Part shown: piece by piece, positions 23,867 through 63,132 of the stretch
Numbering within the stretch: the stretch's first letter is position 1
How the letters are laid out: each line of letters starts with the position of its first letter
Source: a virus
Taxonomy: Duplodnaviria; Heunggongvirae; Uroviricota; Caudoviricetes
DNA length: 64,000 bases
Reading direction: 5' to 3' (one strand)
IMG/VR virus record: IMGVR_UViG_3300013936_000289
Coordinates: 152,064-216,063 of that record
Notes under the pieces: model-generated
What the model was told of the DNA's origin: nothing
What the model saw: the letters and a program-made list of their open reading frames with translations, nothing else
The model's database searches: none
Position numbers and translations under genes: made by a program

Positions 23867-26140
23867 TTAACCCTCGCTATAACATGCAATATTTCCCCAA
23901 TTTTGTTTAGTATTAACATGTCCATAAGAAAGTATACCTATATATATTAATGAACCATTTACTTTTGTAAAAATATATATCTAATACATCATATCTGTAT
24001 AAAATTCATTTAAATTAATGATATTTCCATTTATATCATTACAAACATTATTCAAATCTATAACATAATAATCTTTATATACACTTATTATATCATAATA
24101 ATGATTATTATTTTTAAACTATAATGTATCATATATTTCTCTAAATGTTTTAATTTCATTTATAGACGAATTTTTTGGATGAAATACAAGACCCATTATT
24201 TTATTCATATTAAAATTATAAGTACCTGAAGGAATATTATACTTTTTATAATTTTTTCCAGAATTTATTATTTTATTCGCAATATCAATATCATGTATAT
24301 CATTATCATTACCTCGTTCATTCATTGCAACAAAGTATAAATCAAATGTTCCAAATTGTTTATTTTTAAATGTTGCATTTATTGTTTCCGTTTCTGTTAT
24401 TGTATCACCAGAATTATCATAATAACTGTCATTTGTATCTCCATACCAATGACACCAGCAAATCCAATATGTATTATATGTGCAAGCCTATAAAGACGTA
24501 TAATAATAATTAAATAAACCCAAATATCCATTTTGTCCCATTGTTCCGCCAAAATTAATAACGCCAACTTTATTATATTTAGAATCCTTTACAATATATA
24601 CATATATATTCTAATTTTCTTCAACGTTAGTTATTGTTTCAGCAGAATAATTATAAACTTTCAAATTTGTCCAATCCTATAAATATATATCTTTATATGT
24701 TTCTTTAAATAATGTTGATGTTAATGTGGTACCAACAGGTTTTAACTAATGCCATATATCATCATTATCATCATTTAAATCACTTATATTATTTTCTGGA
24801 ATTTTATCTGTATTTTTATCTAGACGTATACATGCAACAATTCGTCCATTACTAATATCATCATTACTGCCGTAACTATGTAATTTTACAGTACTACATA
24901 CAGTAAATGATGTTTTTATATTTGCAGTCGTTCCTATATCAGAATTAAATAAATATATATTATATCCTGATGTTTCTTTATAATTCTATAAATTCTCTAA
25001 TTTACATATTTTTATAGATGTTTTATAATCTTTCTATGATTCTGAATATTTAACCTTTATAAAATCAATATTATTATATTTAAATGTTATTACTTGATTT
25101 ATATCAACCGTTTGCGGCTGTGTTATAATCATGAGATATGCTGTATTTGTTGTTGTAGCAGTATTATTATCTGTTATTACCATATTATATCCTTCTGGTT
25201 CTGATTCAAATGTATAAGAACTATCTGAATTTTTTAAATTACCATTTATATTATTATTACTATCTCTTAATCCAAATAATAAAGGATTCTCACTCATATT
25301 TGTTCTGTCACTAAATATATAGTTACTATTTTTATGAATATAATATATTTTGTTACTATCTAATATATCATACTTTATAACACCATTTTCAACAGATTTA
25401 TATTTAATAATAACTGGTTCTTCGCTATAATTACCTGCATTTTGAGTAATTCCTATTTTTAAATCTGATTCTATACCATCAATGCAAAATATAATATTTG
25501 CTGTTCTTTGAGGACCTGAATTTTGCTCACACGTTATCATAGGAACAATAGTTCTTTCATTATCTTCACTACTAAAATTATCAGAATTTAATTTATATGG
25601 AGTTCCCAACTATAATGGTGAATTTAAAGGATGTTCAAAAACAACATGACACCAACTCTAATCTATTTTAGCAGTTATTGCAATAATATTATTGTTATTA
25701 TTTATAATATTATCACCTTCTTGTATAACTATAATATGCTCTTCATCAACTTTATTAGTACACCCAGAATTACCTATTATTACGTGATATGGTTCCTAAC
25801 CATTTTGTGCAATAGTATATTGCTATAAATTATCTTCTTCCAACAATACAGGTTCTTCCTCAACATCTGGTTCAGGATCTGGACTATCACCTAATATCAA
25901 TAATATAGGTGTTAAATTATCACTCGCTAATTGAGATGATTCACTACCACTTGAATTTGATGAAGTATTTCCCGATGTAGAACTACCACTTAAAGATGAA
26001 CCTCCGTCTCCTCCAGAACCCGTAGTTTCATCTCTATTTTGTGAAAAATTCAAGTTTCCTTCTGCTGAACTTATAGTAGACTATATTGAAATTTTATCTT
26101 CATCATTCTAAATTATATTATTCACATTGTTATCTTCCAT
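23867..26140 (-). CDS. large BACON-domain putative structural/adhesion protein (757 aa, TAG=Gln)
   Basis: Joins three track ORFs through TAG codons; Ser/Gly linker; WCHV..CEQNSGPQRTANIIF..IGITQ BACON-like pattern. Confidence 0.65.
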
Positions 26141-29425: not shown

Positions 29426-29928
29426 ATGAATTCTATACAAAAGAAAACATTATATGAAAATATAATAAAATCTATTTCTAAATCTGTAAAGAAATCAATT
29501 AATGAAACAATCAATTATAATATAAATATTTTTATCATGCAACTCCATCTTGTTATTTGCGTTCAATAAAGAAAAATGGGTTAGGTGCAAAAGTACCAAA
29601 GAAACGATTTTGGAATTATGAAAATACTCCATATGAAAATATAAAGTACGGGGTATTTTTAGCAACAGATGAATATGTTGCAGAATCATATTTAGATAGC
29701 TCTGATGAATTTGAAGAATTTGCAGAAGAATATGAAGATAGATATGAAAAAGAATTAGAAATTATTGTATTTAGAATTAAAACATCTGATATTGATTTAA
29801 ATAAACTTTCTTTAGATCAAAACAACATATATGATGAAAATGATGAAGAATCTGAAGATGAAAGAGATCCAACATATTTTTATAATGGAATAATACCTTA
29901 TAATAAATTAGAAATAATAGAATTATAA
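29426..29928 (+). pseudogene. frameshifted gene: LYE-helix leader plus ADP-ribosyltransferase-like domain
   Basis: The leader MNSIQKKTLYENIIKSISKSVKKSINE (frame of 29426) stops at TAA about 29567. The domain YFYHAT..LRSIKKNGL..GVFLA lies in another frame, open from 29521 with no ATG. Confidence 0.55.
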
Positions 29929-30002
29929 ATTTTTAAAAATAGAGAATATTTACTAATTAATGTTAGATATTCTCTATTTTTCTTTTTTATATATAAACAA
30001 AA

Positions 30003-30014
30003 TATGTATCTTCG
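30003..30014 (+). promoter_or_regulatory. Bacteroidota sigma-A-type -7 element variant (TATGTATCTTCG) upstream of the radical SAM operon
   Basis: One mismatch to the TATGTATCTTTG found upstream of several other genes. Confidence 0.5.
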
Positions 30015-30058
30015 TGATATTAAATTTAAATTTATTAATTTTTTAAAATAAAGAAATT

Positions 30059-30943
30059 ATGCCAAGTTATAAGAATGGTAATTATATCGTAACAATTTTG
30101 GGTGATGGAACAAAAATTCGTCGTACAAATGATGATGAGTTTATTCCAGCATATAGTGAAAATGTAGACTGTAAATTAACAGATAAGTGTAATATAGGCT
30201 GTGCGTTTTGTTATGAAGGATGTTCGCCACATGGGAAACATGGTAACTTGTTTACATATCCATTTATAAATACACTTCATCCATATACAGAAATTGCATT
30301 GAATGGTAATGACCTTGATCACCCTGATCTTGATAAGTTCCTTAATTTTCTTAAATCGAAAAAAGTATTTGCTAATATTACAGTAAATCAAAAACAATTC
30401 TTTGATAATTATGATAAATTAAAGGATTGGTCTGATAATAAACTCGTATATGGTATTGGTGTTTCGTTGGTAAAACCATCTGATGAACTTATCCAGAAAA
30501 TGAATAGTATTCCTAATACAGTTCTTCATACTATTGTAGGTATTCTTACAGAAGATGATATTAATAAGTTGGCAAATCATAATCTTAAAGTTCTTCTCCT
30601 TGGATATAAAGATTTACAACGAGGAGTTAATTTCCATAAGGAACATAATGATATGATTGAAACAAATCGTAAATATATCTTTGATAATCTTAAGGAAATT
30701 ACGGAGAAGTTTAAAGTATTAAGTTTTGATAATCTAGCAATTAAGCAACTTGATGTAAAACGTATTATGTCCGATGATGAATGGAATGAATTCTACATGG
30801 GAGATGATGGTGGTTATACATTTTATATTGATTTAGTAAAGGGTGAATTTGCAAAGAATTCAATTTCTAAAGAAAGATTCCCTATAGGTGATAAGACTAT
30901 GGATGAAATGTTTCAATTTATTAGAAACAAATATAATAAGTAA
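30059..30943 (+). CDS. radical SAM enzyme (294 aa, no SPASM domain)
   Basis: CNIGCAFC CX3CX2C motif, LNGN (GGE-equivalent position) and NITVN; no cysteines after residue 55. Confidence 0.92.
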   Translation: MPSYKNGNYIVTILGDGTKIRRTNDDEFIPAYSENVDCKLTDKCNIGCAFCYEGCSPHGKHGNLFTYPFINTLHPYTEIALNGNDLDHPDLDKFLNFLKSKKVFANITVNQKQFFDNYDKLKDWSDNKLVYGIGVSLVKPSDELIQKMNSIPNTVLHTIVGILTEDDINKLANHNLKVLLLGYKDLQRGVNFHKEHNDMIETNRKYIFDNLKEITEKFKVLSFDNLAIKQLDVKRIMSDDEWNEFYMGDDGGYTFYIDLVKGEFAKNSISKERFPIGDKTMDEMFQFIRNKYNK

Positions 30944-30966
30944 TAATATAAAACAATAGGAAAATT

Positions 30967-31467
30967 ATGAAAATTCAAATAAGGCATAGTGTATTTGAAA
31001 CTAATTCAAGTTCAACACATACATTAACTATATGTACAAAACCTGTAGATGATAAAATTCTTAAATTATATGCAGGAACTACACTTAAATTTGGTTTACC
31101 TTGGCGAGAAAGAGATAAAGGTAATCATTTTCAAGATAGATTAGATAACTTATTTGACTATATGACATTTAGTGATAATCTATCTCATTTTATGTCTACT
31201 AAATATCGCATTGAAAAAGTATTATCTAAATATGATATTAATTGTGTATTCCTTATTTCAGAAACGGGAGAATATGATAATTATAGCTATGGGTATGAAG
31301 ATGTATTTAATGACCTATTTGATGAAAAAGATGAAGACTTTGAGCAATTATTGTTAGAATATATTTTTAATGATGAATCAAAAGTTGACATATTTGATAG
31401 GGATTATTTCAATTACGATAAAGATTTAAATCATGAACATACAAAAATTTATATAGAACCAGATTAA
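30967..31467 (+). CDS. VFETNSSSTH-motif protein 1 (166 aa)
   Basis: N-terminus MKIQIRHSVFETNSSSTHTLTI. Confidence 0.85.
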   Translation: MKIQIRHSVFETNSSSTHTLTICTKPVDDKILKLYAGTTLKFGLPWRERDKGNHFQDRLDNLFDYMTFSDNLSHFMSTKYRIEKVLSKYDINCVFLISETGEYDNYSYGYEDVFNDLFDEKDEDFEQLLLEYIFNDESKVDIFDRDYFNYDKDLNHEHTKIYIEPD

Positions 31468-32132
31468 TGAAAGTACAAATTAGAAGAGGGGTGTTTGAAA
31501 CGAACTCAAGTTCAACACATTCTTTACAAATTACACATGGAACAATTAATGATGTAAAAGATATTGTATATAAAGCTATTTTTGAGCAATATAAGGATAA
31601 TATGGACTGTGGTATATTTAATCCAAAGGATTATATTATAGAACATACATTTATTCTTCGTGGTATTGATTTCGAAAATGGTGATGAAATGACTAATATT
31701 TATTATATCATTAATAATTGGGTTGCTAAACTTCAATATATTGCAATGGAATTAAATAATAATGCATATTATATTGAAGATTATAATAGAGCTGAATATA
31801 GAAACCATTATTTTGAGGATAATCATGATGATTGGTTAGAAGATACAGAAGTATATAAGAAGTTTGTAGAGTATATAAAGAAGATTGCAAAACAACATGA
31901 GTATGATATTCAAGATGTTAAGAATCAACTTGAATATGGTTCATATGTTGAATTTACAAAAAATACAGATACAAATAAAAAGTTTTTTGAAAATATTGGT
32001 GAAAATGGTGGTTGGTTAACAGTAGAAAAATTCAATGAATATTTTTGGAATATTATGGATGATAATAATACTATTACTTATGCCGATGAAGCTTATGCAC
32101 TTTATTATAAACCAAAGATTTATATTATTTAA
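31467..32132 (+). CDS. VFETNSSSTH-motif protein 2 (221 aa)
   Basis: N-terminus MKVQIRRGVFETNSSSTHSLQI; TAATG coupling to the upstream gene. Confidence 0.85.
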   Translation: MKVQIRRGVFETNSSSTHSLQITHGTINDVKDIVYKAIFEQYKDNMDCGIFNPKDYIIEHTFILRGIDFENGDEMTNIYYIINNWVAKLQYIAMELNNNAYYIEDYNRAEYRNHYFEDNHDDWLEDTEVYKKFVEYIKKIAKQHEYDIQDVKNQLEYGSYVEFTKNTDTNKKFFENIGENGGWLTVEKFNEYFWNIMDDNNTITYADEAYALYYKPKIYII

Positions 32133-32156
32133 TAATTATTAATTTTATAAAATAAA

Positions 32157-32720
32157 ATGAAAGTACAAGTTAGACGTAGTGTATTTGAAACAAATTCAAG
32201 TTCAACACATTCTATTTCCATTATTAAGAAATCTGATATTAATGAATTTCCTGATAAAGTAATATTTGGTAAAGGCGAATTTGGATGGGATTTTGATATT
32301 CATTTTGACACTGCTACTAAAGCAGAATATCTATGGGAAGCAATTACAAGTTGTTATTGGAATAATATTGATAAAGTAAATAATGCAATTAAATCAATTA
32401 CAGATATTCTTGCAAAACATAATATTAAAGCACTATTTCCATATGCTGCTAATATGAAAGTTAAAGTTCATAAATATGATGATGGTAGTGAATATACTTA
32501 TATTAAATTTATGAATAATGATGATGAAGAAGATAGTGGTTATATAGATCATGGAAATGAAGTAGGTGATTTTCTCGAAGATGTTATAAGTAATGATAAA
32601 AAACTTATGAATTATTTGTTTGATTATAATAGTTATGTATCAACAGGTAATGATAATAGTGATGAAGAGTTGGATTGTCCAAATTTTGGAAAATCATGGG
32701 AATACTATAAGAGTAATTAA
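32157..32720 (+). CDS. VFETNSSSTH-motif protein 3 (187 aa)
   Basis: N-terminus MKVQVRRSVFETNSSSTHSISI. Confidence 0.85.
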   Translation: MKVQVRRSVFETNSSSTHSISIIKKSDINEFPDKVIFGKGEFGWDFDIHFDTATKAEYLWEAITSCYWNNIDKVNNAIKSITDILAKHNIKALFPYAANMKVKVHKYDDGSEYTYIKFMNNDDEEDSGYIDHGNEVGDFLEDVISNDKKLMNYLFDYNSYVSTGNDNSDEELDCPNFGKSWEYYKSN

Positions 32721-32738
32721 AATATATAATAATATATA

Positions 32739-33041
32739 ATGAAAATTCAAGTAAGGAAAAGTGTATTTGAAACTAACTCAAGTTCTACACATTCATTGAC
32801 ATTTGCATCAGATGATGAATATAATGGATGGAAAAATGGAACATATGTTCTTGATAGAGATCATAATAAATTAGTTTCAAAAGATTCTATATCAGAGGAA
32901 GATATTACAGAAGATAGCTGGAGATATAAATCATATGATGATTACTTCGGTGATTATGATCTAGAATCTTATGATAAATCTTATACAACTAAAAGCGGTG
33001 AAATTGTTCATGTATTCGGTAAATACGGATATGATGGATAA
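32739..33041 (+). CDS. VFETNSSSTH-motif protein 4 (100 aa)
   Basis: N-terminus MKIQVRKSVFETNSSSTHSLTF. Confidence 0.85.
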   Translation: MKIQVRKSVFETNSSSTHSLTFASDDEYNGWKNGTYVLDRDHNKLVSKDSISEEDITEDSWRYKSYDDYFGDYDLESYDKSYTTKSGEIVHVFGKYGYDG

Positions 33042-33049
33042 TTAATAAT

Positions 33050-33086
33050 TTAAGAGATGTAATAATTAAATTACATCTCTTTTTTA
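33050..33086 (+). terminator. intrinsic terminator closing the radical SAM operon
   Basis: aagagatgtaat / attacatctctt stem followed by a T run. Confidence 0.75.
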
Positions 33087-33156
33087 TTTAAAAAATTTTA
33101 TGTATCTTTGTTAAAAGATAAATACTAAAAATAATTTTTTTAATTTACATAACATT

Positions 33157-33729
33157 ATGAATAATAAACAAAAGAAATCATTATATGAAAGTATAATGAA
33201 ATCAGTATCAAAATCTGTAAAGAAATCAATTAATGAGAAATATACACAAACAAGTGGACGTTATTATGTAACATTAACAAATGTAGAATCACTTGTTATT
33301 GGTGATCCATGTTATTGTTTAACAGAAGATATTTATGATAATGTATGGGGTGCAAAGAAATATCCTGATGGAATTCTTGAAAATGATGAGGAAGTTATAG
33401 GTATTATTCAAGGAACTCAATATGGCGATGGTACATATGATTCTATGACAAATCAAAAATATGATGTAGATTCTGGTACAATAGGTATTTTTGATATTGC
33501 CTATTGTAAACCTGAAATTGAATTAAAACAAGATGAAAGTATTCAAATATTCCCTGCAAATGAAGATGGTGAAATTGATATTGAACTTGAATTTTCAGAA
33601 GGACTTATGGTATTCAAAGTTAATCAAGTAGTTATAGAAGAAATTTATCTTTCTGATTCTAATTTTGATGATGAAGAGGAAGATTATGATGATTCAGATG
33701 ATGAATGGGATGACGATGATGAATATTAA
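33157..33729 (+). CDS. LYE-helix leader protein with DPCY/VDSG (DUF4241-like) domain and acidic tail
   Basis: MNNKQKKSLYESIMKSVSKSVKKSINE, then LVIGDPCY..YGDG.Y..VDSGTIGIF. Confidence 0.65.
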   Translation: MNNKQKKSLYESIMKSVSKSVKKSINEKYTQTSGRYYVTLTNVESLVIGDPCYCLTEDIYDNVWGAKKYPDGILENDEEVIGIIQGTQYGDGTYDSMTNQKYDVDSGTIGIFDIAYCKPEIELKQDESIQIFPANEDGEIDIELEFSEGLMVFKVNQVVIEEIYLSDSNFDDEEEDYDDSDDEWDDDDEY

Positions 33730-34384: not shown

Positions 34385-35518
34385 TTATAAATTAATTTGT
34401 CTTAATCCTTCAGTTAAAATATTTAATGAAGCATTATAATCTCTATCTATTAGAGATCTACAATGTGGACATATCCAGTCGCGTTCATTTAATTTTAAAC
34501 TTTTATAAATATATCCACAATTGTGACATGTTTTAGAAGAAGGATAAAATCTATCTATAATCATTAATTGTCTTCCATTCTATCTACATTTATATTCTAA
34601 CTAACGTCTAAATTCATAGAAACTTAAGTCCTATATAGATTTAGCTAATTTATGATTAGACATCATACCATTTACATTTAAATCTTCAATACAGATAACT
34701 TGGTTCTCGTTAACTAATTTTGAACTAATTTGATGTAAATATGTGCTTCTTTGATTAGCTATTTTTTCATGAACGTTAGCTAATTTAATTCTAACTTTAT
34801 TTCTATTATTACTTCCTTTCTACTTTTTAGAAAGTTTCCTCTATAATTTCTTTAATTTCTTTTCTTGGTTTTTATAAAAATGTTTATTCTCATATCTATT
34901 TCCATTAGAATCTACTATAAAGTCTTTAATACCTAAATCAAGACCTATTACTGTATCTAACTTTTCTTTTTTATAAATATTATACTCAATACAAATAGAT
35001 AGATAATATTTTTCAGTAGATGTTTTAGTAAGAGTAATAAAATGGATTTTATCCTGATTATGATTTAAATATATTTCATCTCTTTTTGAACATTTAAATA
35101 ATATATTCTATAACTATTTAATTAATGTTATCCTATTACCATTAATTTTCTTTTTCTTAAATTTAAATATAGTATTTGTAAATCTACATGTTTGTTTAGT
35201 ATCTTTCTTTGATTTAAATTTAGGATAACCATTATGTAATTTAAAGAAATTATCATATGCTTTAATCATATCCATTATAGATTGCTATAAACACTAAGAA
35301 TAAACATCATTTAAAAAAGAATATTCATTTAGTTTCTTTAAATTAGTTAAATATTTACCTAACTGTGATAAAGAAACAGATTGTTTATTCTACTCATACT
35401 ATGACTTCTTATAATACAATAATTTATTATATATAAGTCTACAACAACCTAACTGTTTAGAAATAAATTCTTTCTAAACATTATCAGGATATATTCGTAT
35501 TTTAATAGACTTTAACAT
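34385..35518 (-). CDS. tnpB: TnpB (IS200/IS605-family) RNA-guided endonuclease, 377 aa, TAG=Gln
   Basis: Manual translation: SIKIRIYP, GCCR.IYN, GLDLGIKDF (RuvC D), IEDL (E), CHNCG..CPHC zinc finger and DRDYNA (D); no tnpA nearby. Confidence 0.93.
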
Positions 35519-36704: not shown

Positions 36705-37448
36705 TTAAGAAAAAACTTCTTTAAATTTCTTATAATTAATTCCTCCCGGTATTGCGAATATAATGGCTTCAAAATGATATTTAGAAGATCCCAATAATTC
36801 CTTAAATACTTCAGCAACAAATTGAGGATCATTCTTAAATACTCCGCATCCAAATGCACCAAGAACCAAATTCTTTTGTTTATGTTTCTCTGCAATATCA
36901 AGAATAAATTTTATTCTATCATTCATAGCTTTCATCGCATAATAAATATGTCCTTCATAATGTGAAAGATTTGGTGCTGGACATGTAATTACATCTACAG
37001 AAATAAAATTATCAGCAACTCTATTAAAAATAATATTTGGAGAATAGATAGCAAAATTCTTATATAATCCGCCATTAGTATTTTGTCGATTATGTTCATA
37101 ATATGTATTAAATTTTTTATCGGAGATTACATTATATAAATCACTTGCATGACATAATGCTTCTTCTTGAGCTATCGCACCTTTAATGAAACCTCCACCA
37201 GGATATTTATAGCTTGAAAAATTCAATACACATAAATGTTTATCTTCTCCATACTTAAAAACTGCATCTTCTGTCTTTATATCTTCTACAATAATATTTC
37301 TTTTATCTAAAACATTATCATCCTCTGTATATACAACAGAATCTCTAATAGAAGTTTGAATCATAGGATGAAAAGAATTTTCCATTTCTTCTATATGATT
37401 CTTAGCTGTTAATTTTCTATCTTCTTTAATATACGGTTTAACCATCAT
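36705..37448 (-). CDS. TIGR02452-like microbial PARG/macrodomain protein
   Basis: VLNFSSYKYPGGGFIKGAIAQEEALC, DVITCPAPN and LVLGAFGCGVFKNDP motifs; ATG start at 37448 preferred over GTG at 37541. Confidence 0.9.
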   Translation of the reverse strand: MMVKPYIKEDRKLTAKNHIEEMENSFHPMIQTSIRDSVVYTEDDNVLDKRNIIVEDIKTEDAVFKYGEDKHLCVLNFSSYKYPGGGFIKGAIAQEEALCHASDLYNVISDKKFNTYYEHNRQNTNGGLYKNFAIYSPNIIFNRVADNFISVDVITCPAPNLSHYEGHIYYAMKAMNDRIKFILDIAEKHKQKNLVLGAFGCGVFKNDPQFVAEVFKELLGSSKYHFEAIIFAIPGGINYKKFKEVFS

Positions 37449-37525
37449 ATTCTTTAAATTATTGAAATAGGTTCTGGTATAATAATTTATTAAATACCAA
37501 AACCATAAATTCTTTATATTAAATA

Positions 37526-37798
37526 TTACTCGATTCCACATAGAGCAATAACATTATTCAACTCTTCAACTGTTGTAGCATATCCTATAGAAGAACGCTT
37601 AATAATAGCACCACTCTCATTACACTTCCAACAATTAATATTGAATGTAAGTTTATTACTCAATGGAAAATATTCCTGTTCTACACTAACTCGCCACTCA
37701 GGAGATTCATTATTAGTCTTATAAAAACGACACAAAACACGATCAGGATGATTTGTTTCATATCCATGATCTAAAAGATATTCCTTTGTTAATTCCAT
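37526..37798 (-). CDS. hypothetical protein
   Basis: 90 aa ORF. Confidence 0.6.
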   Translation of the reverse strand: MELTKEYLLDHGYETNHPDRVLCRFYKTNNESPEWRVSVEQEYFPLSNKLTFNINCWKCNESGAIIKRSSIGYATTVEELNNVIALCGIE

Positions 37799-42239: not shown

Positions 42240-43349
42240 TTAAATTTTTTTATTTTTTATGTATTCTTCAAATTTATTAATTAAATCTTCTTTTTTAACT
42301 GCAAATAGTTCCAAATAATTTAAATTATTTTCTTTTGCCGTATTTCTCTTATTGACATCTCTAACAGTCCATACATCAATAGCATGTGAATAACCTGTTT
42401 TATCTTTTCTTAACATTAATTCATTTAAACGTTCAATATCATTTTTATCATTAGGATTAAATGGATGATAACCATGTGACCAATAACCTTGCAATTCAAT
42501 ATACAAATCCAAACTTTTAATATAAAAGTCACAATGATATGGATATAAATCAGATTTATACTATCTTAATATATCATTTGCTCCATATTTATTACAAAGA
42601 TATTCATGTAATGATTCTTCTGATTTTGACTATCTGTATGAATTATGTTTTTTCTTTGAATCAAAATTTTTCTATAATATATCTTTATTCTACATAGGAT
42701 TTTCGCAACCGTATTTTTCAATCCAAGTTTCCTTAATATGTTCCTTCATACCTGGAATTTTAAAATTATGGTCTACTCCATATCTCTCTATACAGGTTTG
42801 CTTCATCTTTTCTAAACACTTTTTATTCTAAGCTGTATATGGAACACCTAATCTTTTTATATTAGTTTGCTTAACTTTTTCTTTTATTTCATCACACTAC
42901 GTAGGATATTTTGTACCATATCTTTTTAAACAGGTATCTTCTATTTTCTTCCTAACTTCTTGATAAAAATCTTTTCCCAAATATTTATATTCTGTTACTT
43001 TTCTTTTTCTTGTTTTTGATTTCTTCTATATAACATCTTCAAAATTCTATACACATTTCTATGAACAATATTCTCTAAATTTATGGTTATGATGAAATTC
43101 TAAAACTTTACCACATGCCTTACATTTAGGTCTATGTTCAATATGATGAAATATTCTATAAAAAGTTTCATATATGGATTCTGAATCCACATATCTATTT
43201 TCTATATATTCTTTAATAGTTGGATACTAATTTAAAAATATCTTACTTGTCCTACTAGGATTAATATCATTTTCTGTATTCTTTAATTTAAAATTCTATA
43301 TAATAAAATCATCAGTTATAATATCAGGAACTTCAAAATATTTTCTCAT
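42240..43349 (-). CDS. freestanding putative homing endonuclease (zinc finger, KxTxxxRYGV repeats, Vsr/DUF559-like nuclease; TAG=Gln)
   Basis: Manual read-through: CKACG..YCS.KC, about four repeats such as EDTCLKRYGTKYP and KQTCIERYGV, and C-terminal DFYIKSLDLYIELQGYWSH. Confidence 0.75.
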
Positions 43350-53508: not shown

Positions 53509-55716
53509 ATGTTTCCAATTAAAAATGTATAGAAGATAGATAAAGCATATTTTTCAAAAAATAGAAGTTACGCCTAGAATGCTGGTGTTTATTATAATTA
53601 GGACGGATTCTCATCAGTGACTAATAATATAAATTAGTTACAAGGTACATATAATCCTGATAAGTACATATTAGGTAATGTTACGAAACCTAATATGAAA
53701 ACATTTGTTAATTATGATAATAAAGAAAAAGAACATAAAGGAAATAATACAAAAATTAATATTAACAATATAAAAACAAATAAGGAAACGTATGCTTATG
53801 TTTCCAATATCATGATACCTACTATTGAGTCTAAAGTAAAACCAATTTAGGAAATTCTTAAAGAGAAATAGGATATTATTAAAAATAAAAATGTTATTAT
53901 TAATAGTAAATAGTTTAAAGATAAAATAAAAAAGGAAAAAGAAAATAAAATTAATACTGAAGTTGTAAATGTATTGAAGAAAAATAATACTTCGAATTCA
54001 TTATTTCAAAAAGAATTAAATAGCGAAATTATGAAGAACGAGAATGATACTATATATTTAAATAGTTGGGCATTTTTAAATTCTGATAATACAGTAATAC
54101 CACATAACTTTGGTGATGATATAAATTTTTCTTTTTTAAAAGAACTTACAGGTAAACAACATAAAAAATATAATAAGAAAGATAAGAAAATAAATTATAT
54201 ATTCATAGGCTCTATTTTATGTGATGAATATATAGATGATTTTACAAAAATATGGGGGAGTGGTTTCTTATATAAACATAATTTAAAAAATAAACCAAAT
54301 AAAATATATGCAGTGAGAGGTCCCAAAACAAGGGATTACTTATAGGAATTAAATATAAATTGCCCAAAAGTTTATGGGGATCCAGCATTATTATTTCCAT
54401 ATTATTATCAACCATATGTAATGAAAAAATATAAGTTGGGAATTATTCCGCATCATTCACATATTAAATCATATATATTAAATAAATTTAAAGATAATGA
54501 TGATATATTAATAATAGATTTTACAAAATATAATGATTGGAAAGATATAATAAAAAATATAGAAGAATGTGAATTTATTGTTTCAGAAAGTTTACATGGG
54601 TTGATTATTTCAGAAGCATATAGGATTCCAAATATATGGATTAGTATAGGTAAAAATATAGGATAGGACTTTAAATTCGAAGATTTCTTTTTATCTATTC
54701 ATAAACCATTATATGATTCATATTTAGTAACAGAAGAAACAACAGAAGATGATTTATTGAAATTAAAGAATAACTATGATTCAACATATGATATTGATTT
54801 GTAGAAATTAATTGATGTATGCCCAGTAAAATTAAATCATTTGAATTTATATAATAAACCTAAAAAATATACAGGAAAGATCTTATTATGCTGTATAGGA
54901 AAAATGGAAAATAATTATATAAGAGAATTTGTTGAACATCATAAATCAATAGGATTTGATAATATTGTTTTATATGATAACAATGATATTGATGGCGAAC
55001 ATTTTGAAGATGTAATATCTGATTATATAAATTCTGGATATGTAATATTAAAAGATTAGAGAGGGAAAGAATTGGTTTAGATTCCATCATATACAGATTG
55101 CTATAATATATACAAAGACAAATATGATTGGATCGCATATTTCGATATTGATGAATTTTTAGAATTAGATTGTAATGATATACATGAATTTTTATCTAAT
55201 GATATGTTTAATGATAGAGGAATTAATACAATAAGAGTTTGCTGGAGATAGTTTACAGATTCAGAAATATTAAAAGTAGAAGATAATAATTATTCAATTA
55301 AAAGATTTACAGATTATCTACCTATTACAGAAAATTGGTCTACTCAAACTAAAATAATATTTAAAACATGTGTAGATAATATAGAATTTAATTCACCTCA
55401 TGGCATTTTATATGATTCGCCATATAGTAAAAAAATAGTTACAGTAAATACAATAGGTTAGTTATGTATAAATTCTATAAAATTAAGAGATAATGAAAAA
55501 ACATGGGAAAACGCAAGGTTAAATCATTATAGATTCAAGACAATAGAGGAATATGTAATGAATAAGATGGTAAGACTTTGGCCAACTAATTATTTGCAAG
55601 GTGGAAAAGTAGGTCTTAATCTTAATTTCTTTTTTAGATTTAATAATAAAACATAGGAAAAAGAAGATTTTGCAAATTATCTTTTAGATAAATATAATAT
55701 AAATAGAAATGAATAA
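53509..55716 (+). CDS. fusion: low-complexity N-terminus, polysaccharide pyruvyl transferase domain and GT2/GT92-like glycosyltransferase (735 aa, TAG=Gln)
   Basis: Single reading frame through many TAG; IGSIL..WGSG..AVRGP..YGDPAL..SLHGLI and CIGKMEN.YIREFVEHH..GFD.I.LYDN..YDWIAYFDIDEF..LNHY motifs. Confidence 0.85.
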
Positions 55717-61779: not shown

Positions 61780-63132
61780 TTAAATTAATTGTAACTTTCT
61801 TTTAATAGTTTTTGCAACTTTACTCATTATTGATTCATAAAGTGCTTTCTTTTTCTTCTCTATTGTATATTTATATGCAATACATCTTAATGCTTCTGCA
61901 ATACCTAATCTCTTTCTTACTTCTGTCGGATCTGCAGTTACTTTACCATCAGTTGTTGAAACTAAATCTGAAATAGATTTGCCTTTAACATTTATATTTT
62001 CAATTGTCGCATTAACATTAGTATCATCTATAGAATAAACAAGATTTTTAATAACATTATTTAAATCAGAAGGATTTACAAAATCATACTTATTTACAAC
62101 AGCATTAGTATTAATCCAAACAAATGGTACATTTTCTGATACCTTTGCATTTTTTGACGTACGTGCAGTAGATTTCATAAATAATATGCTATCTGTTTTA
62201 AGTGTCATTTCAGCAGTACTAGGTGCATCTTTTACTAGTTGCTTTAATCTTAAAACAAATTCTTTTTCTTCATCTGACACATATGACTTTTCTTCGGTAT
62301 TATCAGAAGACATAGCATTCTTTTTATATGCATATGTTAAGAATGTAATAAATGCCATATCAAGCTTAAATAATGTACCATCTCCATTTACATAATAATA
62401 ATCGGAATCTGTATGACTTGAACGACTGTTATATGCAAAACGTAATGCAATATTACCAGGTTTATTTAAATTTGCATAAATTCCTGGAATAATAGTTGCA
62501 ATATTATATTCATTACCATTTTTCTTGATACGAGGCATTACATTTCTACCATTATAAGAATCTCTCCAATTTTTATCGTTTTCTTTTTCTTCTGGTGTTC
62601 TATCATCCAATGGTACCGGTTTATCATCTTTACGATTATAAAAACGTTCATAATTATTATCATAACCGTCTTCAAAACCAAATTCTCTACGGAGATTTAA
62701 TTCAGCATCATTCTATTTTTTATAAAATTTTGCTAATGCTTTAGAATCTTTCCAGTTACATGTTAAATGACTAATCTTAAGTATATGTTCTGTTGTTAAA
62801 TCAAGCATACATGTTTTTGTCTTTGCAGTGCCATTTAAAAAGCTTTGATATTTAGTAGATTCCCTAAATTCTGTTAATAACTATTTAATTCTATTATTAG
62901 GCATAGCATTAATATATTGCTATAACTATGCGTCCGTTTCTGAATTTATATTATAACATTGCTTTTTTGAACCACGTTTTGATACAAGTGGGTTAGCACC
63001 TTCTCCCTATAATGTATCTGATACATATGCAATTGAAACATAATCACCAGGTTTCATATTATATTTCATGAAAATATCAGCAGGATTATAAACAACTAAT
63101 GGCTTCTATTTTGCTTCAAATAATTTTTTCAT
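61780..63132 (-). CDS. hypothetical protein with C-terminal LYE helix (450 aa, TAG=Gln)
   Basis: Starts MKKLFEAK; read-through into track ORF 61780-62610; ends KKKALYESIMSKVAKTIKRKLQLI. Confidence 0.7.

Follow-up and report, generated by a model that had tools for sequence, protein, structure and literature searches.

A 64,000-nucleotide stretch of a Caudoviricetes genome (IMG/VR record IMGVR_UViG_3300013936_000289, positions 152,064 to 216,063) raises an unusual question: why should four adjacent genes begin with the same peptide, and why should they stand behind a gene for a radical S-adenosylmethionine (SAM) enzyme? The whole stretch, hereafter the window, in whose numbering all coordinates are given, is from a Lak-B Prevotella megaphage, and the module in question occupies 30059-33041 on the plus strand, where one radical-SAM gene is followed by four genes whose products carry a common N-terminal tag. 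An earlier note, made from the sequence alone, had placed five open reading frames (ORFs) here, and their coordinates are reproduced. The best explanation that we can offer is that the phage has a system of two parts, a radical-SAM enzyme and the set of partners that it serves, which are marked by the fixed tag M-K-x-Q-I-R-x-G-V-F-E-T-N-S-S-S-T-H, a proposal to which we give about an even chance. It starts from four plain observations: the genetic linkage of enzyme and tag, their natural fusion, the pattern of conservation and the structural kinship of the enzyme.

Genetic linkage of a fixed peptide to a radical-SAM enzyme

All four partner proteins start with MK(I/V)Q(I/V)R(H/R/K)(S/G)VFETNSSSTH and have residues 1-19 in common. 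Across codons 10-18 the four copies differ at third positions only (ACT/ACG/ACA, AAT/AAC, TCA/TCT), and it is therefore the peptide that is conserved; the earlier note had called the differences mostly synonymous, and over these codons they are exclusively so. It had also described the bodies behind the shared motif as strongly diverged, in agreement with a BLASTP comparison of the four from residue 25 onwards, which gave no pair better than E 1.3. The same constraint on the tag is seen well beyond the window. Among 244 distinct tags, N13, S14 and S15 are found in all 244, R6, E11 and T12 in 242, H18 in 240, S16 in 237 and F10 in 236, and Met1 sits 10-11 residues ahead of T12 in 325 of 337 tags. 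The sole glycine position of the tag is position 8, which is Gly in 128 of the 244 distinct copies. The tag heads bodies that have no mutual relationship, as is the case for the 221-aa protein of the module and for the two main kinds of partner, the longer L form and the shorter S form. The module as a whole can be defined by a tag of the form R6..F10-E-T-N-S-S-S-x-H18, 10-11 residues after Met1, beside a single-cluster radical-SAM enzyme of about 295 residues that belongs to phrog_16999, and the locus in the window has each of these features.

The earlier note had made its reading depend on linkage between the motif family and the enzyme family, and the linkage proves to run in both directions. 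When IMG/VR loci were seeded with a profile of the L form, the radical-SAM gene was adjacent and on the same strand in 77 of 80 (median gap 9 bp), and when loci were seeded with the enzyme, a tag lay within 5 kb in 75 of 78. Loci from bacterial records and metagenome-assembled genomes (MAGs) have an adjacent radical-SAM gene in 63 of 77 cases, and of five records without one, four encode the enzyme elsewhere. Clustering of the same-strand ORFs across loci left the radical-SAM enzyme and the tagged family as the only universal components; a universal third component was rejected, with no other ORF cluster present in more than 18 of about 82 loci. In the Salmonella phage Arash the two are naturally fused, gp146 consisting of an L domain, with the tag at its extreme N-terminus, followed by the radical-SAM enzyme. 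The Microcystis phage Ma-LMM01 encodes the partner (gp130) and the enzyme (gp128) two genes apart, and in the Rhodothermus phage RM378 the pair comprises p106 (partner) and p108 (enzyme). Both gp128 and p108 share the database label 'Fe-S oxidoreductase' with phrog_16999.

The module is common in large phages and is not special to Lak. A word-indexed protein search returned 5575 homologues of the enzyme, and relatives of the 187-aa L form number 1610 representatives of 50%-identity clusters. Carriers are found among megaphages of the gut, gut and rumen phages of T4 size, cyanophages, and phages that infect thermophiles or enterobacteria. When prokaryotes were sampled at one genome for each of 185,579 species, only 117 relatives came to light, mostly on MAG contigs, and the module is therefore essentially viral. 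As phage gene modules without a characterisation go, the pair is one of the more widespread in large phages.

The enzyme, its partners and their predicted complex

The enzyme (294 aa, 30059-30943, plus strand) matches phrog_16999 with E 1.7e-35 in a PHROG search. Its cluster motif, C44-X3-C48-X2-C51, is invariant in 39 homologues, which have no other invariant Cys, and there is no Cys at all after residue 55; the earlier description of a CX3CX2C radical-SAM enzyme lacking SPASM/twitch cysteines is therefore upheld. Neither the enzyme nor its partners gave a Pfam or NCBIfam match above threshold, the enzyme scoring 12.4 bits against PF04055 where the cut-off is 29.5, and homologues in L005 and P0370 have precomputed PF04055 matches. 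The AlphaFold2 (AF2) model of the enzyme has a mean confidence (pLDDT) of 95 and shows a three-stranded N-terminal sheet (residues 3-23), which carries the conserved Y.NGN...DGTKIR, and behind it a full barrel; Foldseek matches the model to radical-SAM structures with probability 1.0. The best match in the PDB is SkfB (6efn, E 1.3e-7, TM 0.58), followed by SuiB, CteB, EpeE and ChlB, and among reviewed proteins the structural matches are AhbD, SkfB, AlbA, MftC (TM 0.64) and PqqE. By this model, the nearest structures to the enzyme are those of peptide-modifying radical-SAM maturases.

Inteins typically sit in indispensable sites. In Lak-like homologues of the enzyme (P0269, P0271 and P0267; also L010, 3919-6428) an intein (PF14890, PF07591) lies within CX3CX2C, directly ahead of the third Cys, and in a further record (G001, the record of locus L071) the radical-SAM gene is split by about 1.4 kb. 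Strong conservation, coupled with the inteins in the cluster motif, suggests that the module matters to the phage. A separate observation concerns the C-terminal part of the enzyme, where a profile of residues 208-276 (window 30680-30886) matches the soluble domain of T4 holin T (PDB 6pxe_T) with E 0.0036, over a common stretch F-(D/E)-x-(L/V)-A-(I/L)-E-Q-L. This likeness may be fortuitous, or it may point to a relationship that has escaped notice.

The bodies that follow the tag fall into at least three kinds, namely the L form, the S form and variable extras. All four partners in the window match phrog_28997 in the PHROG search. The 187-aa protein (32157-32720, plus strand; E 2.6e-20) is a canonical L form, a class that ranges from 156 to 227 aa and in which E11, N13, S14, S15, S16, H18, W44, Y58, D131, H132 and D166 are invariant in the alignment. 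T163, G164, N165 and N167, which with D166 make up a TGNDN motif, are near-invariant (at least 90%), as is a C-terminal YYKGN (the 187-aa protein ends YYK.N), and such a pattern, with its D-H pair and TGNDN, is characteristic of active sites. Confidence in the AF2 model of the L form is high overall (pLDDT 92.7) but averages 50 over residues 1-10, which fits an arm that would be free until bound, and a strand starting at S16 belongs to the folded core of the model. No solved fold resembles it: the best Foldseek match in the PDB had E 0.096, VIA-align against 48,161 chains gave a best Z of 2.8, and a search of the sequences of solved structures with the L profile returned nothing meaningful, an outcome that is not in itself proof of a new fold. 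Fold searches of the AlphaFold database clusters, BFVD and the ESM Atlas with the same model returned uncharacterised phage proteins only, plus one cluster with a Tad2-like domain. That cluster, a viral one of 261-aa proteins in the ESM Atlas that carries PF11195, is the sole named structural neighbour of the L form (TM 0.56 over 135 residues), and the match suggests that an L-like domain is fused there to a Thoeris anti-defence sponge domain.

The S form of the module (100 aa, 32739-33041, plus strand), assigned by an alignment of S forms, has the tag, then a conserved Trp (..EY..W.NG) and a C-terminal ..TT.SG..V.VFGKYGYDG. The subfamily spans about 97-137 aa and ends AFG.YG(Y/H)D, and F93, G94 and the tag do not vary among 29 aligned S forms, which come from 28 loci. 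The idea that the S form is a truncated L form was rejected, since the two profiles align over the tag only in hhalign. Most loci encode one L and one S form.

The two remaining partners in the window are extras of different kinds. By hhalign, the 166-aa protein (30967-31467, plus strand) is a degenerate L paralogue, matching the L profile at 99.2% with the tag included and at 84% (E 8e-6) with the body alone, and it has E-D in place of the D-H pair and FDRD in place of TGNDN. The 221-aa protein (31467-32132, plus strand) matches the family over residues 1-26 only, that is, over the tag region; its body has no detectable relatives outside Lak-like phages, and orthologues with the same ends occur in the Lak-like loci L008, L010 and L011. 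The earlier note had seen faint shared features in the first three partners, and this view survives in part, in that the body of the 166-aa protein is remotely homologous to the L form while the 221-aa protein has no detectable similarity past residue 26. Its further notion of a diversified substrate family likewise needs qualification, for a tagged family linked to the enzyme does exist, but its members are unequal: a canonical L form (187 aa), an S form (100 aa), a degenerate L form (166 aa) and a protein with the tag alone (221 aa). Elsewhere tagged proteins reach 404 aa and contain no known domain. Pfam, NCBIfam and PHROGs, applied to the five module proteins and to 20 longer or odd tagged proteins, gave only phrog_16999 and phrog_28997, and a search with residues 1-40 of the 404-aa member found its own orthologues only.

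A prediction of the complex of enzyme and partner, a kind of check that the earlier note had proposed, points to the tag alone as the interface. The enzyme was modelled with its 4Fe-4S cluster, SAM and the L form from custom alignments, and the interface score ipSAE was 0.82, compared with 0.12 for the best of three controls; the drop is seen when the enzyme is replaced, and the interface is to that extent specific to the enzyme. In calibration the mark was reached by 58 of 80 solved complexes and by 2 of 110 mismatched pairs, counts that are only a rough guide here because the calibration used other alignments and no riding ligands. Three runs had at least 82% of contacts in common, with a partner pLDDT of at least 71. 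Confident contacts on the partner side are confined to residues 1-14, 16 and 18-19, of which residues 2-6 pair in the model with the hairpin strand 18-23 of the enzyme. The confident contacts of the enzyme are 16-28 and, in the barrel, 35, 37, 78, 80, 104-108, 131-134, 153-157, 177-181, 219-224 and 243-248, many of which are invariant in the enzyme family. The enzyme is thus predicted to bind its partner via the tag. That the two form a pair is established by the data, and the model supports, as a predicted mode of binding, that they are joined through this peptide.

The tag as substrate, docking arm or signal

What would the enzyme do with a peptide bound in this way? In the reading that we prefer, tag residues 2-6 would dock as an extra beta-strand on the N-terminal hairpin of the enzyme (residues 18-23), and the polar second half of the tag, E-T-N-S-S-S-x-H, would be pulled in where the SAM barrel is open, to a place at which the 5'-deoxyadenosyl radical would most likely take hydrogen from an invariant tag residue, leading to a covalent change. 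The main client would be the L form (187 aa), an enzyme-like protein whose fold has no solved match, in which the D-H pair and TGNDN would build a working site together with the modified tag. The S forms (100 aa) and the 166- and 221-aa paralogues would be further clients that keep only the tag.

Whether the polar half of the tag is indeed the substrate of the enzyme is, in our judgement, finely balanced. The proposal is favoured because unrelated bodies retain the tag to the letter, because the residues that do not vary in it are small and polar and do not look like an anchor, because the kin of the enzyme are peptide maturases, and because the L form is enzyme-like with a site that could include its first strand, from S16. 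Several considerations weigh against it. Most known radical-SAM enzymes that oxidise or cross-link peptides use an auxiliary cluster, which is lacking here, and in the leader-guided systems described so far the piece that is best conserved tends to be the handle and not the altered site. The strand from S16 lies in the folded core, and modification of the tag would therefore have to precede folding, unless the tag can swing away from the core. The interface between enzyme and tag is a prediction whose strength is that of model confidence, and the one-to-one pairing of the genes and their fusion fit a permanent complex just as well. A more specific version of the substrate proposal, which we think rather unlikely, is that the enzyme installs a catalytic group without precedent, derived from the protein itself (an oxidised or rearranged Ser in T-N-S-S-S-x-H, for instance), and so makes the L form an enzyme of a new kind, on which large phages would depend early in infection. 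Such an enzyme might act on a host immune signal derived from a nucleotide or on a modification of nucleic acid; the leads here are the L-like fold that occurs with a Tad2-like domain and the genes for poly(ADP-ribose) glycohydrolase (PARG) that lie near the module in Lak and in L005.

The alternative that survives best, and which has a real if lesser probability, is a permanent two-subunit enzyme, with the tag as an unaltered docking arm, perhaps also an active-site lid, and the L body holding or processing a non-protein substrate. The radical-SAM subunit would then attack that substrate (a nucleotide, a nucleic-acid base or an immune signal), and the paralogues would be alternative specificity subunits. 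The fusion of an L domain to the enzyme in Arash would fit such an arrangement, as would the single cluster without an auxiliary one and the enzyme-like invariant residues of the L body, which are distant from the tag. It would also accord with the frequent presence of replication and nucleotide metabolism genes around the module (primase, RecA, helicase, a PurZ-like synthetase and further radical-SAM enzymes) and with the L-like fold in the 261-aa Atlas cluster that carries a Tad2-like signal-sponge domain (TM 0.56). However, most paralogues and the whole S subfamily lack the residues of the L body and yet keep every tag residue, the partner body makes no confident contact with the enzyme in the predicted complex, and an invariant run of small polar residues, T-N-S-S-S-x-H, would be unusual for a mere anchor.

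It is improbable that the enzyme is instead an activase, comparable to pyruvate formate-lyase activase (PFL-AE) or NrdG, that takes a single hydrogen from the tag and leaves there a stable protein radical for catalytic use by the L form. A small single-cluster radical-SAM enzyme with a dedicated protein partner, and a partner arm that enters the barrel in the model, are features that such a pair would have, and the short S proteins are presumably reminiscent of small glycyl-radical spare subunits. Nevertheless, known stable backbone radicals are on glycine, and the tag has no invariant Gly (128 of 244 at position 8). Moreover, some carriers of the module infect hosts that are aerobic or produce oxygen (Rhodothermus, Microcystis), conditions that destroy such radicals, and the top Foldseek matches of the enzyme are peptide maturases, not activases.

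The capsid-targeting sequence of T4 internal proteins is cut after (L/I)-x-E. A sorting or processing signal of that type, with the radical-SAM gene as a bystander, would account for tandem genes with identical N-termini and unrelated acidic bodies, and V-F-E ahead of the polar run bears what we take to be a likeness to a prohead-protease site, but it is very improbable given that targeting signals are lineage-specific whereas the tag is near-identical in Lak, cyanophage and thermophile phage, that the two-way linkage and the fusion would be left without explanation, and that the predicted interface is enzyme-specific (0.82 versus 0.12).

Genomic setting and comparison with known systems

The 3.1-kb region of the module is 99.4% identical to that of the Prevotella phages Lak-B7 and Lak-B8 and about 73% identical to that of Lak-A and Lak-C, and in the window the module forms a short plus-strand island amid a long run of minus-strand genes. 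The borders that the earlier note had assigned to the unit, an upstream hairpin and a downstream terminator, can be located, as can the coupling of two of its genes. On the left, an AT-rich hairpin with a T run (29940-29990, plus strand; arms 29940-29949 and 29967-29976), read directly from the sequence, is probably the terminator of the upstream gene (29557-29928) as well as the left border of the unit; its stem (29940-29976) has too few G-C pairs and was missed by the terminator scan. A promoter-like motif, ATGTATCTTCGT (30003-30017, plus strand), lies about 45 nt upstream of the radical-SAM start and includes TATCTTCG at 30007-30014, which we take to resemble the Bacteroidetes -7 motif TAnnTTTG, the promoter scan used covering sigma-70 sites only. 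A twin motif, ATGTATCTTTGT (core ATGTATCTT), is found at 33100-33111, ahead of the next gene. Within the unit, the ORF coordinates place the start of the 221-aa gene on the stop of the 166-aa gene, with a 1-nt overlap in TAATG at 31467. On the right, the terminator scan identified a hairpin of 12 pairs (33052-33081, plus strand) with a T run to 33090, and this terminator-like element (33052-33090) is the apparent right border; the scan found three such sites in the region, where 0.5 would be expected.

Stop codons in the window are recoded in the manner typical of Lak megaphages. In-frame TAG is absent from all five module genes, as the earlier note had claimed, and reaches 15 in neighbouring genes. 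The recoding is patchy, with 14 TAG codons in 23867-26140, 15 in 53509-55716 and 11 in 42240-43349, and long runs of small genes, the module included, are free of it. A second common N-terminal peptide, MN..QKK.LYE.I.KS.SKSVKKSINE, is encoded on either side of the cassette by the plus-strand ORFs 29426-29569 and 33157-33729, whose bodies differ, and a weaker copy occurs near 61851 on the minus strand; the first of these ORFs has a product of just 47 aa and is overlapped by a 123-aa ORF in a different frame. About 1.3 kb past the cassette is an IS605-type OrfB/TnpB gene (34385-35518, minus strand; PF01385, PF07282, PF12323) with 12 in-frame TAG codons. A gene with a microbial-type PARG catalytic domain (36705-37541, minus strand) is found about 4 kb from the module, and a second PARG gene lies about 2.5 kb from the module of an unrelated 158-kb contig (L005, 10393-11202), beside Thg1 and RlaP; the association of PARG with the module may be weak. 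Contigs of gut phages in the range 150-190 kb often have, beside the module, a gene for a PurZ-like adenylosuccinate synthetase (phrog_1211) together with one or two additional radical-SAM genes of other kinds (phrog_24834, phrog_17662), examples of such neighbours being at L033 6871-7968, L024 6995-7972 and L054 14209-14937.

The earlier note knew of no characterised system with this motif, and the present searches agree. We found no Pfam family, solved structure or paper for either partner of the pair, and a literature search on the motif, the carrier phages and phage radical-SAM enzymes gave no description of the pairing, the tag or the L and S forms. Published radical-SAM/SPASM peptide systems are different from this pair (Kaur et al., 2020; PMC7159879). 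Both Lak families fall into existing sequence bins without an assigned function, phrog_16999 ('Fe-S oxidoreductase') and phrog_28997 (unknown function). If the chemistry were solved, radical-SAM enzymology would gain either a reaction on whole proteins that it did not have before or a radical enzyme of a new, two-part kind, and a fold without a match among solved structures would acquire a function. The question is directly testable, as culturable carriers exist in the phages Ma-LMM01, MaMV, RM378 and Arash.

Three groups of known systems provide the closest comparisons. The glycyl-radical activases (PFL-AE, NrdG) are likewise small single-cluster radical-SAM enzymes dedicated to a partner protein, a segment of which can reach the barrel only by coming out of the folded core. 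In contrast to the glycyl-radical proteins, the partners here are small, have no solved-fold match and carry a tag without a conserved Gly, and the hosts include aerobes. The anaerobic sulfatase-maturating enzymes (anSME/AtsB; anSMEs), with their sulfatase clients, offer a second parallel, in that the radical-SAM enzyme targets a short Ser/Cys motif that lies close to the N-terminus in a folded enzyme. The catalytic residue so made works there with nearby Asp/Asn/His metal ligands, and the same logic may apply to the L form. However, anSME clients carry (C/S)-x-(P/A)-x-R whereas the sequence here is T-N-S-S-S-x-H, and anSMEs have two auxiliary clusters where the present enzyme has none; sulfatase and alkaline-phosphatase structures are also absent from the fold matches of the L model, which by itself is weak evidence, whereas the comparison of motifs is direct.

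The SPASM/twitch maturases (SkfB, SuiB, CteB, EpeE/YydG, ChlB, PqqE and MftC) differ in that the enzyme here has neither SPASM/twitch cysteines nor a PqqD-like domain and is predicted to recognise its clients via an N-terminal hairpin. Pfam, NCBIfam and PHROGs revealed no recognition domain in or beside the enzyme, and there is no universal third gene. Whereas ribosomally synthesised and post-translationally modified peptides derive from a short precursor and rely on a PqqD-like element, the partners here span 100-476 aa, and the model of the L form is confidently globular; the clients would be folded proteins of 100-400 aa and not short precursor peptides. Furthermore, the conserved piece itself contains the invariant polar residues, and the system is almost exclusively phage-encoded. 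For all these differences, the SPASM/twitch maturases are the closest structures to the enzyme, and they share with the module the organisation of one enzyme with several co-encoded clients that have a common conserved recognition piece, as well as the entry of a client peptide into the barrel, as is predicted here for the tag.

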